Origin: Podospora anserina
Taxonomy: Eukaryota
DNA length: 64,000 bases
Reading direction: 5' to 3'
NCBI GenBank assembly: GCA_017654855.1
Contig: CM030338.1
Span: 3,162,001 to 3,226,000 of the forward strand
In this document: positions 42,618 through 46,889 of the stretch, piece by piece
Position numbering within the stretch: position 1 is the first letter of the stretch
Layout: every line of letters starts with the position of its first letter
Position numbers and translations under genes: made by a program
Notes under the pieces: generated by a model
What the model saw: the letters and a program-made list of their open reading frames with translations, nothing else
Databases searched by the model: none
What the model was told of the DNA's origin: nothing

Positions 42618-43819
42618 CTGGCCTCTCTCTCCTTTTCATCGTTGATCATAGCTGGGCCTAGAGACAGGACAAGCATTGGGTTTTGAAACTTTATGAACAG
42701 CATCATCCCGGGTTTAAAGGTGCATATGGGAGTTTTGGAGTTCAAAGGAACGGGCGGGGTAGTGATACCTAATGGATTCTTATGAGAGGGGGTTTGACTG
42801 AATTATAATTTTTTATCTCTATATCTAATTTGTTGTGTTGCTGTGACCACCTGATGACTTTATATCATGGCCTCAAATCTTTAGAGACGATATCAGTGTG
42901 AAATTACAATGTCTTTGCGAGAATAGTATCTACCTTTTGCTTGTCCACACACACACGCACACACACACACACACATACAAACACCTTTCACATTGTCTCT
43001 CTCCTCACCATTATTTCCTAGCCCCGTTCTGTCAAGCTAGATAGGATAGACTGAAGAGTGTATACAGATATAGGATTTGGAGGACCAGGAAGAGGTCAAT
43101 GTTAGGGTACTGAAGAGGTAGAAAATTCGAGATATATGCTCCATATTTGACCTCGATTATCTACCAGCCCCTCTACACATGTACCCGCAGCTGCATACTC
43201 TCTCATGCATGTCACCCATTTGCTGCCATGCCAATGCTTGGAATGATCCTCTCACACAGTACAGACTCGACAGATCCTCACCCCCCATACCCACCCATAT
43301 ATGACTACCAAGAAAAGACACCCACACCTAACACTGAACACCTCCTCATCCACACCATGTTCCCTAACTGCAGACAAGTTCACACTGTGCTCAAAGAGGA
43401 ATAACCGCGTATATTATGTAAAACTAGCAAAGACTACACTCTATATGCTCCCCCCAACCCCCTTGTCGACTCCACAACCTCCCCCGTCCTTCCAACCGTC
43501 TAGAAGGATCTCAAGAGTTCACAAGGCACTCCTGCCAGCCTTATCGCTTAGTCATGAACGCAGACGATGCCCTTTACAACCTAAAGAGAGAGAGAAAGAC
43601 CAATCAGCTACCCTGTTTCTGTTACAAATTCAAACAGTGCATTTCTATTTGTTTGCTCTCTATCGGGGGGTCGTTGTCACACATTCATCACTCTGAGCTC
43701 CAGCACAAACAAACAAAAGCCACGAAAGAAGTTACTTGGTAAACTACACATGGCTTGTCGCGCGCGAAGAGAGGTAGGAAAGAGAAAAGAAAAAGAAACT
43801 TTTGGGTATGGGGGTTTGT

Positions 43820-45193
43820 TTACTTCTGGGGAGGGTTGTGAGCGAAGGTGACACCCTTTGAGATGTTGCCCTTGAGACCAGACACGGCGGCCGCGAGGAG
43901 GGCCTTCTCCTTCTCGGTGATGTCGCCAAGGATGTCAATAGCCTTCTCGGCACCGTTGGGCTATTCGCTTGTCAGCATAAGAGGTCAAGACTGGGGGGGG
44001 GGAAGACATACACCGAGCTCAATGGGGACGGAGAAGAAGTCGACACCAGTCTTCTCGGCAATCTCCTTACCGCCGGGGACACCGGGGAGGTAGACGTAGC
44101 TGGGCTCAACGAGGCCCTTGGCACCAGCAGCAGCCTTCAGGAGCTTCTCAGCGAATCTGGTATGTGTGTCAGCAATAGCCCAACCTCTTTCTCTGATGAT
44201 TATGCTCACCTGTAACCGGCATAGGCCATGGAGAGGGTGGCAGAACCGGCACCATCCTTGGCCTTGACGACCTCATCACCACCGAACTGGACGCGGTTGA
44301 CAAGAGCATCGTACTTGTCATCGGGGATGGTGACGGAAGGAGTGACCTTGCTGAAGAGAGGGACGATGGTCTCGCCGGAGTGACCACCAATAACGGGTAC
44401 GGTAAGCTCTTGAGGGTTGGCCTTGCCGACGATCTCAGCAACGAAGGTCTCGGCGCGGACGATGTCGAGGGTGGTGACACCAAAGAGGCGCTGGGCGTTG
44501 AAGACACCCTTGGACTTGAGGACCTCGGCGGAGATGGGGACGGTAGAGTTGACGGGGTTGGAGATGACAAGGATGAAAGCCTTGGGGGCGACCTCGGCGG
44601 CAACCTCGATGAGGCCCTTGACGATACCAGCGTTGATGTTGAAGAGATCGTCACGGGTCATGCCGGGCTTGCCTAGAGTGGGGGGTCATCGTCAGCACTT
44701 ATGCGCCGGGACAGCAGCACGGCACCAGTCGGACGTACGGGGAATGCCAGCGGGGATGACAATGATGTCGGCATCCTTGAAGGCGGCCTTGGCGCCGTCA
44801 TTGGCGGGAAGGTAGCCGGTGGTTTTCTGTTTGCGGCAAAGGTCAGCCGGAGTTCGCGGGCTCGCGGTTCGCGATTGTGTCTGTCACTTACCGCCTTGGA
44901 GGAGATGTGGGACAAGTCGGCAGCGACACCGGGAGTGTTCACAACATCGTACAGGGCGAGCTCGTCAACGAGCGGGGAGAGGCTCAGAAGAAGGGAGAGC
45001 GGCTGCGGACGTCCGGTCAGTAATGCCGCTCAAACATGACGGCGATGGTAGTGACGGAGGAAGCTATACCTGACCAATACCGCCAGAGGCACCAGCAACC
45101 ACTATTCCCAATGTTAGACTCCCGTCTCGTTTTCCATGCCAGTTATGCGCGCATGTTGCGCTGTTCGGGCAAACACTTACCGGCCTTGACCAT
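43820..45193 (-). CDS. MDH: NAD-dependent malate dehydrogenase, no mitochondrial presequence; 6 coding introns plus 5'UTR intron 45226..45320
   Basis: [85 protein letters not shown]; ends HNPPQK then stop. Confidence 0.97.
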
Positions 45194-46248
45194 CTTGAAA
45201 ATATAAAGGGGATATAGAGGGGTAGCTGTTGAGCGCAATGTGATTGTCAGCTTTGCGGTGTTTCTGAGAAGGAGATAAAGGGGGTTCAGACTCAGCAATG
45301 AATCACATGGGAATACCTACAATGAAGGCGAGTGCGTAGGGGCTGTTAGAGTTAAAATCTAACGGTCAATGGATTGGGATGGTGGGAATCTGGTTGAGCT
45401 GGATCCGGGAGAAGGGGGAAGCTTGGGGGGCTCAAGCTTAAGTAGAGTTGGCGGGGTTATGCTTGGCTGACCGCGATCCCGTGTCGTCAGTTGCCCCGCG
45501 TTCCTCCCCCTCAGCCGGCATCTTGCTGGGGTGCCAGGGAGGGGTCCGTTACTATTGCCGGAGGGCCAAGTGTACAACAGTGTGTCACAGAAACAAGAGG
45601 CGAGCAAAGACGCCATCGGCCTATTCGGGGAGACTCCCGCCTGGAAAAACTCAATTGACGCATCCCCTTTTGCTGCCCTCCCTCAGTTACCACAGCTACC
45701 ACAGCCGTGATACGTCTCCGTCGGTCAATCAGTCCTCAGTCGCGAACAACTCGCGGCACGGGCCGGCCATGACTGCGGGAACTGGCCGACATGTGGGTTC
45801 CGAGGCCCGACACTCGGGTACTGGACTCGGGCAAGATCGGGATGCATTCCATGTTTTGAATCCCAAACAGGCTCGTGAGAACCCGCCGGCGGGTTCAATG
45901 GCTGTTTTCATAAATAAATACCCCTGAACCAAAAGACACCTTTTACACTACATATGTCGTCACTTGAGCTCGTCGATTCCTCAGCGAATGATCATTATGA
46001 ATGCCTCGTATATTGACCGCAACACCGCCCGTTGGCTGCAAAACAGATCCCGACTGAGTGGGTGATCCTCTGTTTGTGGATATCAAACGCCATGCCCATT
46101 CCTGAATGCAAGATTTGACAATCCGTCCCTGTCCCAATTTTGCCCCGGCATCCCATTCGTGTCATGCAACTCTCTGTCTACCCGAGGAGTTGCGGACTCA
46201 ACATCAGAGCTTTATAAACGTTTTCCCTTTTTTTCCCGTTTCCATCCT

Positions 46249-46889
46249 TTACTCGGACTTCTCGGCGGCCTTCTTGGCGGCGTTGCCACGGAGCTTGGGC
46301 TCGGGGGAGGGCTTCACGGGTCTCTGAGAAGCACGGATGGCGGAGGCGCGGGCAACGGCGACCTGGCGGAGATCGCCACGGTACTTGGCGGTCTGCTTGG
46401 CAATAGACTTGTAGGTCCTGTAAATCCATCACTGTCAGCATGGCTGGCGATACCCTCACTTCGAGTGGGTTGCTACTGACTTGCGGTTGGCCTTGGAGGC
46501 GCCAATGGTAGAGACGGTTCTGCCGGAGGCGGGCTTGTTGCCAGCGGACACCTTCTTGGAGATGACCTGGATAGTGTTGTTCTCACCGGCAACGACACCG
46601 ATAGCCTAACCCATGTATATATCAGTTCCTGTTGACTCCTTCACTCGTATCTTATCGTACCTTGTCGTTGACGTAACCAGCGTACTTGCGGGAGTGGACG
46701 TTGGTGAGGTTGAGGGGGTCGCGGGAGAACTGGATACCACCGCTCTCCTTGCGCTTCACGAGGAAGGCGTTCTGGAGGCCTTTGTGTGTGCATTTTCGTT
46801 AGCTGGGGCTCGCTTCAAGGTTCGTGACGGATTCTCGGGCCAGACATACGGGTAACCTCCCAGATGAGATCAGCAGAGACGTTGGACAT
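46249..46889 (-). CDS. RPL28: 60S ribosomal protein eL28, 3 introns
   Basis: MSNVSADLIWEVTR|LQNAFLVKRK..FSRDPLNLTNVHSRKYAGYVNDK..YRGDLRQVAVARASAIR. Confidence 0.95.

Follow-up and report, generated by a model that had tools for sequence, protein, structure and literature searches.

Final-intron switches in fungal malate dehydrogenase genes

The C-terminal tripeptide x-K-L is the core of the peroxisomal targeting signal of type 1 (PTS1), which is bound by Pex5. In Aspergillus fumigatus the most abundant malate dehydrogenase (MDH) mRNA, which is also the annotated one, keeps the final intron of the gene, and a distal UAG acceptor located 4 nucleotides (nt) further adds one amino acid and creates a putative PTS1; in Lipomyces starkeyi the final MDH intron is either retained or spliced, again with a putative PTS1 switch but no tandem acceptor (Hurtig et al. 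2020, RNA 26:1464, PMC7491326). The same source puts the age of the event at over 590 million years and reports its replacement by duplicate genes in other yeasts. Here we describe the corresponding event in a 64,000-nt stretch of the Podospora anserina genome (contig CM030338.1, positions 3,162,001 to 3,226,000), hereafter the window, in whose numbering all positions are given. The MDH gene concerned lies on the minus strand and ends in a 243-nt terminal intron that contains its stop codon. We consider it almost certain that this intron undergoes real and conserved alternative splicing, and likely that the full mechanism holds, including the peroxisomal import of the form ending in QKL.

The best documented case is that of Yarrowia lipolytica, where fluorescent fusions placed the P-A-N isoform of YlMDH2 in the cytosol and the A-K-I isoform in peroxisomes (Kabran et al. 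2012, DNA Res 19:231, PMC3372373). Peroxisomal localisation has been shown in this species only, whereas the window gene is known from sequence and RNA contigs. In two reviews Y. lipolytica is the only MDH case listed, and peroxisomal MDH is described as re-oxidising the NADH of beta-oxidation by means of a malate/oxaloacetate shuttle (PMC3798809, PMC9549241). The kind of system is therefore already known, since the orthologous event has been published for three ascomycetes and the isoforms of some Sordariomycetes are present in GenBank. An original prediction, made for this locus from the letters alone, had stated that fungi can make peroxisomal MDH by alternative splicing, which agrees with the orthologous event that directs MDH to peroxisomes in Y. 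lipolytica (PMC3372373). It had also called the intron cryptic, and this word has to be given up: it is instead an ancient alternative intron, both isoforms of which are annotated in some Sordariomycetes.

The window gene resembles those of A. fumigatus and L. starkeyi in being orthologous, in having a donor that splits the last sense codon and a stop codon that is intronic, and in the single residue that splicing adds to give a putative PTS1 (PMC7491326). With L. starkeyi it further shares the choice between retention and one acceptor, whereas in A. fumigatus there is a pair of acceptors separated by 4 nt, the proximal one restoring K-stop (PMC7491326). It differs from both in its long intron (243 nt) and in the A at position +5 of the donor, and its tripeptide is QKL. 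In YlMDH2, on the other hand, removal of the intron is invariable and what varies is which of two 3' splice sites 4 nt apart is used, yielding P-A-N or A-K-I (PMC3372373). Tandem 3' splice sites are the state of A. fumigatus and Y. lipolytica and are not universal in the family, L. starkeyi being without them (PMC7491326).

Less closely related systems are also known. For Ustilago maydis and Aspergillus nidulans a hidden PTS1 was described that alternative splicing exposes, so that part of an NAD-linked cytosolic enzyme reaches peroxisomes (Freitag et al. 2012; PMC4207609, PMC9549241, PMC12316961), but the enzymes are GAPDH and PGK, there is no orthology between the introns and some of the cases depend on stop-codon readthrough. 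Mammalian MDH1x is similar in that a peroxisomal MDH is obtained from a cytosolic gene by bypassing the stop codon, but in MDH1x and LDHBx it is the ribosome that reads through the stop, at UGA CU (Stiebler et al. 2014; PMC4207609). Readthrough in place of splicing was considered for the window and rejected, as the frame past the TAA gives a 43-residue tail (open reading frame 43688..43819) that ends in ..CWSSE, without a PTS1-like end. In Saccharomyces cerevisiae, Mdh3 (ending in SKL) is a dedicated peroxisomal paralog that replaced the alternatively spliced ancestor (PMC7491326), and Yor084p (Lpx1) is a peroxisomal protein with the same QKL end as the long form predicted here (PMC2173120). 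Both are products of separate genes in which the signal is encoded directly and no splicing is involved. Mammalian MDH1x and LDHBx were reportedly also the subject of Hofhuis et al. in 2016.

According to the mechanism that we propose, one non-mitochondrial NAD MDH gene of a Sordariales-type fungus gives rise to two mRNAs. With the 243-nt intron retained, translation stops at the intronic TAA and produces a protein ending in ..NPPQK, the putative cytosolic form; with the intron removed, AA is joined to G TTG TAA and the protein ends in ..NPPQKL. The added leucine completes a PTS1-type tripeptide (Q at -3, K at -2, L at -1) that Pex5 is expected to recognise, sending part of the enzyme into peroxisomes, where it would re-oxidise the NADH of beta-oxidation and serve the glyoxylate cycle. 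Binding by Pex5, import of the QKL form, the stay of the ..NPPQK form in the cytosol and the metabolic role are thus the predicted steps of this scheme.

Splice signals and transcripts of the terminal intron

The 3' coding end of the gene reads CAG AAG TAA, with CAG at 43828-43826, the lysine codon AAG at 43825-43823 and TAA at 43822-43820. The donor is found inside the last sense codon, its G being at 43823, which makes the stop codon intronic as in A. fumigatus and L. starkeyi. Removal of the 243 nt from 43823 to 43581 gives CAG AAG TTG TAA, and therefore Q-K-L-stop and a protein end ..NPPQKL; the one added residue creates a terminus of the x-K-L/I type by which the family is defined, here as K-L-stop. 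A CT-rich run at 43600-43585 follows the branch-point motif GCTGAT. The 3' untranslated region (UTR) contains 32 AG sites down to about 43385, among which the site at 43581 has the highest pyrimidine fraction (0.94) and is the only one where a strong pyrimidine tract is accompanied by a CTRAY motif at branch-site distance (27 nt). As this same AG is the one that yields K-L-stop, the acceptor is beyond what could be attributed to chance. When all 32 were examined as alternative acceptors for the same donor, no other had the tract and branch site, or gave a PTS1-like end with good signals. A tandem AG 4 nt upstream of 43581 is absent in the window and in its seven closest loci (L001-L006 and L051).

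A search of sequencing runs returned 24 that match; 18 of them (X1-X18) contain 72-81% of the words sampled, a share that fits spliced RNA, and the other six contain 100%. Logan contigs of X1, X6, X9 and X13, belonging to four studies, were placed on window positions 43250-45450. The six MDH coding introns were found joined in all four runs, and the 95-nt intron of the 5' UTR in X1 and X6; because of these joints the contigs must derive from spliced RNA.

In X6 we observed a contig with a junction from 43578 to 43822 which, with its cut at +2, corresponds to 43580/43824, and which skips 243 nt bounded by CT..AC on the plus strand, that is GT..AG on the gene strand. This junction contig has 28 letters on its shorter side and a recorded depth of 263.9, and an unspliced contig of the same run, spanning 43551-43851, has a depth of 126.7, values that can neither rank the isoforms nor give their ratio. 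The contigs of X1, X9 and X13 read through the alternative intron, while all the other introns that they cover are removed. The clearest example is a single 1,544-nt contig of X1, in which seven other introns are removed, the alternative one is kept and the sequence extends to the 3' end. Both mRNA forms are hence expressed, the retained form being present in four of the four runs and the spliced junction in one of them, as contigs and without quantification; since contigs drop rare variants, that X1, X9 and X13 yielded no junction contig is neither a sign of absence nor a measure of regulation. Retention is specific to the terminal intron and is found in transcripts that look mature, while the same intron is also spliced out.

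Contigs of X1 and X6 start at 43390, where an X6 contig carries a loose end of nine T (poly-T), and the transcript 3' end can therefore be placed about 190 nt past the acceptor. Within the intron no loose end or contig stop was found in the four runs, although contigs cannot settle the matter of intronic polyadenylation.

The elements that the original prediction had located on the minus strand, namely the AAG and TAA codons, GTAAAC, GCTGAT, the CT tract, TTTAG, G TTG TAA, the length of 243 nt and the resulting QKL, are all correct (Table 1), and the junction from 43824 to 43580 that it named for a search in RNA is precisely the one of the X6 contig. It would have been at odds with polyadenylation always taking place before 43581, and this is not so, the 3' end near 43390 lying beyond the acceptor.

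It could be argued that the intron is essentially constitutive, the protein always ending in QKL and the PQK form representing unprocessed pre-mRNA together with old gene models. The greater depth of the junction contig in X6 and the 30 annotated or assembled homologs ending in QKL (see below) go in this direction, but per-contig depth does not rank isoforms, all four runs keep the stretch with the other introns cleanly gone, including the seven of the long X1 contig, and the most abundant MDH mRNA of A. fumigatus is the one that keeps the intron (PMC7491326). We regard this explanation as very improbable.

Conservation of the splice and predicted targeting by its product

A scan of metagenome contigs identified 80 MDH loci, in 51 of which the last exon could be located. 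A donor with its G at the wobble position of K-stop, followed within 400 nt by an acceptor that gives K-L/M/I/F-stop, is present in 26 of the 51, and the added residue is L in 25 of these (in L028 it is first M). Eight loci end in K-stop and have no acceptor of this kind (L013, L017, L023, L026, L027, L034, L035 and L074; the contig of L013 ends 119 nt past the stop), seven already have an xKL or xKI end (L007, L037, L046, L048, L056, L057 and L072), four have AAA-stop (L011, L015, L032 and L043) and two S-stop (L038 and L041), four more being other or truncated (L012, L022, L030 and L068).

As a control, 500 flank shuffles were made for those loci, 26 in number, in which over 420 nt follow the K-stop. 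AG/R-Leu-stop within 30-400 nt occurs in 23 of these 26 loci, against a shuffle mean of 1.2 and a maximum of 5, the shuffles ignoring relatedness among loci. Moreover, when the one-residue extensions possible in the 26 flanks are counted, KL leads with 23 occurrences, followed by NL with 8. The introns vary in length from 40 to 270 nt and their contexts differ widely between lineages; judging by these loci, what is conserved across lineages is the coding outcome K-L-stop, and nearly all of the diverse Pezizomycotina-type loci share the event.

A second AG is placed 4 nt upstream of the acceptor in 16 of the 26 acceptor-bearing loci, and its use restores K-stop. The transcript-like contigs L011, L015, L032 and L034 have AAA or AAG followed by TAG and then by N-YTG-TRA or GTTTTGA (a Leu or Phe codon and a stop), 3' ends that look like the expected product of the proximal acceptor 4 nt upstream of the PTS1-creating site, and two others (L007 and L037) show the spliced PPQKL form. 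Elsewhere the spliced ends are canonical, as PSKL in L021, PAKL in L014, L018 and L033, and NSKL in L042. In L032 the distal acceptor would yield K-F-stop and not K-L-stop.

The homologous proteins point in the same direction. A search with the large exon of the gene, restricted to longer proteins, was evaluated for the best 120 homologs, nearly all of them Sordariomycete or Leotiomycete MDHs starting with MVKAVVAGA. The C-terminal tripeptide is PQK in 65 of these, QKL in 30, QQK in six, AQK in four and PPQ in two, while 13 are singletons that include one AKL and one EKL, so that 32 have an xKL terminus. For nine of the 32 the sole source is a jgi, ena or lgn contig, 1.1-1.6 kb in length, with the whole protein in a single frame, which suggests that these contigs are transcripts. 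Cluster look-ups revealed isoform pairs at one locus tag in Pyricularia oryzae (MCOR27_006997) and in Fusarium falciforme (NW754_005492), in both cases a 330-amino acid and a 331-amino acid product whose sole difference is the final L. A third annotated isoform of P. oryzae (P0137, 335 amino acids) ends in ..PPQNSSPRL in place of ..PPQK or ..PPQKL; it appears to use the same donor with a different acceptor, and its tripeptide PRL is also PTS1-like.

The window and its seven closest loci, whose large exons are 91-97% identical, form a variant of their own. They have in common a single acceptor, long introns of 162-270 nt and donors (GTGAAT, GTGAAG, GTAAAT or GTAAAC) in which +5 is always A, and in the seven loci the acceptor is preceded by CTGAT at a distance of 25-29 nt; in most loci with tandem acceptors the introns are short, with G at +5 (GTGAGT, GTAAGC, GTAGGT). 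In the alignment of the eight 3' regions (A1) the mean column identity is 48%, the 3' UTR being diverged apart from invariant islands formed by the coding end with GT-AA, by GCTGAT and by TAGG-YTG-TRA. The donor, branch site, acceptor and Leu-stop are under strong purifying conservation, and the conservation in relatives of the donor and of an AG/R-YTN-stop acceptor, which the original prediction had proposed to look for, was found in the genomic loci and in A1. An A-rich block inside the intron is shared in part by the window, L001, L002, L004, L005, L006 and L051; it may be a splicing-regulatory or a polyadenylation element.

This degree of conservation is hardly compatible with spliceosomal noise at a chance GT..AG pair of the 3' UTR, devoid of function. 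A weak donor (GTAAAC) and a junction seen in one run only are what noise would produce, but it would leave unexplained the 23 of 26 loci where 1.2 are expected, a branch site and an acceptor that stay invariant in a diverged UTR, the annotation of both isoforms in other species and the published orthologous event. We give this explanation practically no weight.

The window lineage has an architecture of its own, in which the proximal acceptor was lost, the intron is long, the weak donor is invariant and the end is QKL. The original prediction attributed the ratio of the isoforms to the weak donor, which may act, as we would add, together with the intronic block; the +5 A is invariant in the window and the seven loci. 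We are tempted to go further, as a tentative suggestion that is rather doubtful at present: in Sordariales the ancestral acceptor-choice switch, with AGs 4 nt apart, may have been replaced by a regulated intron-retention switch composed of the invariant weak donor GTRAA (+5 A), a four-fold longer intron and the A-rich element (43664-43639), growth conditions would set the peroxisomal share of MDH through splicing, and QKL would be a deliberately weak PTS1 that allows partial import. A hint in this sense is that the spliced form has a depth comparable to that of the retained form in one run and is unassembled in the three others.

Regarding the signal itself, the PTS1 consensus is (S/A/C)-(K/R/H)-(L/M/I) (PMC2173120). 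The yeast peroxisomal protein Yor084p ends in QKL, which its authors interpret as a functional PTS1 derivative (PMC2173120), and for non-canonical tripeptides import depends on the upstream residues, SKF being tolerated by yeast MDH3 (PMC12316961). QKL is to be seen as a non-canonical variant, as the original prediction had also described it, and would be PTS1-like only if the upstream residues and the Pex5 of the lineage allow it.

Several points weigh against the switch and the import as we read them. None of the runs is on record as RNA, their kinds having been guessed ('RNA?'), and the junction was seen in only one of four runs, on one contig whose shorter side has 28 letters. The loci counted for conservation are not independent, L039 and L040 having identical entries, L016, L019 and L020 being near-identical and L023 and L026 likewise. 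Moreover, three of the 26 control loci (L023, L026 and L035) have GT at the wobble position of K-stop and no K-L-stop acceptor within 400 nt; these may be lineages that lost the switch, or a different paralog. As to the signal, the K and L of QKL, at -2 and -1, agree with the consensus, but its Q at -3 falls outside it, and our search of the open-access literature gave no paper that links QKL to a fungal MDH, Yor084p being the only fungal QKL case found. Finally, a separate dedicated peroxisomal MDH gene may exist elsewhere in the genome. The same literature search gave no report of a Sordariomycete peroxisomal MDH isoform.

The splice could also be real and conserved and its selected role be other than import, for instance in mRNA stability, translation or 3'-end choice, or through an effect of the added leucine on the enzyme, with QKL not working as a PTS1 in this lineage. 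Besides the Q at -3, the partly conserved A-rich block, which could act on RNA processing, and the retention in L. starkeyi, described as likely coupled to intronic polyadenylation (PMC7491326), are in favour of such a role. Nevertheless it agrees badly with what is conserved, namely the coding outcome: K-L-stop is kept across intron lengths of 40-270 nt and divergent sequences, the tandem acceptor toggles only between K-stop and K-L-stop, which is hard to explain at the RNA level, and canonical SKL or AKL ends are found in some lineages. We consider this possibility unlikely, and peroxisomal import of the QKL form remains the explanation that we prefer.

There is little new in principle in a further MDH switch of this type. 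What our analysis adds is its near-universality in Pezizomycotina-type loci, the conserved K-L-stop and the variant architecture of the window lineage, and it illustrates that a genuine post-transcriptional targeting switch can be recovered by reading raw sequence. Since most homologs are annotated only with the ..PQK end, predictions of peroxisomal proteomes miss the second isoform. The switch also bears on how NADH from beta-oxidation is re-oxidised in filamentous fungi without a dedicated peroxisomal MDH gene.

Gene structure and neighbouring features

The features of the gene are collected in Table 1. In the intron-retaining form the gene extends from an ATG at 45193-45191 to the TAA at 43822-43820. 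Its large exon has matches to Pfam Ldh_1_N and Ldh_1_C and shares 86-97% identity with MDHs of Sordariomycetes and Leotiomycetes that start with MVKAVVAGA and have no presequence. The N-terminus is also MVKAVVAG, split by the first coding intron between MVKA and VVAG. By these similarities the gene is assigned to the presequence-less MDH orthologs (MDH2/MDH3 lineage). At the 5' end, the contigs of X9 and X13 stop at 45225 with a 12-letter loose end that was read against the upstream exon.

Table 1. Features of the MDH gene and of its alternative terminal intron (window numbering)
Feature	Position	Strand	Basis or remark
NAD malate dehydrogenase gene, presequence-less (cytosolic-type)	43820..45193	-	sequence; exon joints in RNA contigs of four of four runs
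Constitutive 5'-UTR intron, 95 nt	45226..45320	-	joint 45225->45321 in X1, X6
MDH coding exon 1	45193-45181	-	
MDH coding exon 2	45101-45070	-	
MDH coding exon 3	45002-44892	-	
MDH coding exon 4	44826-44739	-	
MDH coding exon 5 (large exon)	44672-44210	-	
MDH coding exon 6	44156-44012	-	
MDH coding exon 7	43960-43820	-	intron-retaining form
Alternative terminal intron, 243 nt	43581..43823	-	joint with GT..AG ends in one X6 contig; retained in X1, X6, X9, X13
5' splice site AA/GTAAAC, +5 = A not G	43818..43823	-	sequence; RNA joint
A-rich block inside alternative intron	43639..43664	-	partly conserved, alignment A1 columns ~245-275
Branch-point motif GCTGAT (CTRAY class), 27 nt upstream of acceptor	43603..43608	-	sequence
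Polypyrimidine tract	43583..43600	-	pyrimidine fraction 0.94 at -20 to -4
3' splice site AG (TTTAG/G), single acceptor	43581..43582	-	sequence; RNA joint
Terminal exon coding start G TTG TAA	43574..43580	-	completes Lys AAG, then Leu, stop
Rest of 3' UTR	43390..43573	-	poly(A) site near 43390, from X1/X6 contig starts

One letter of the gene differs between the window and the RNA contigs: at 43841 of the plus strand the window has A and all four runs examined have G. The codon GCT of the gene strand thereby becomes GCC, which reads as a synonymous alanine codon, and this is probably a strain difference.

Upstream of the MDH gene and on the same strand, at 46252-46428 (minus strand) and nearby, a gene is found that resembles ribosomal protein L28e; the match of this fragment to Pfam PF01778 has an E value of 3.5e-05 and is under the curated cut-off. 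In two of the homologs, P0002 (466 amino acids) and P0108 (476 amino acids), PF01778 is fused to MDH domains, most likely through gene models in which the same two neighbours were merged.

Beyond the gene's 3' end, at about 42890-43040 of the window, there is a dinucleotide (CA/TG) microsatellite, which is visible as HTHTHTHT and VCVCVC runs in the translations of open reading frames.

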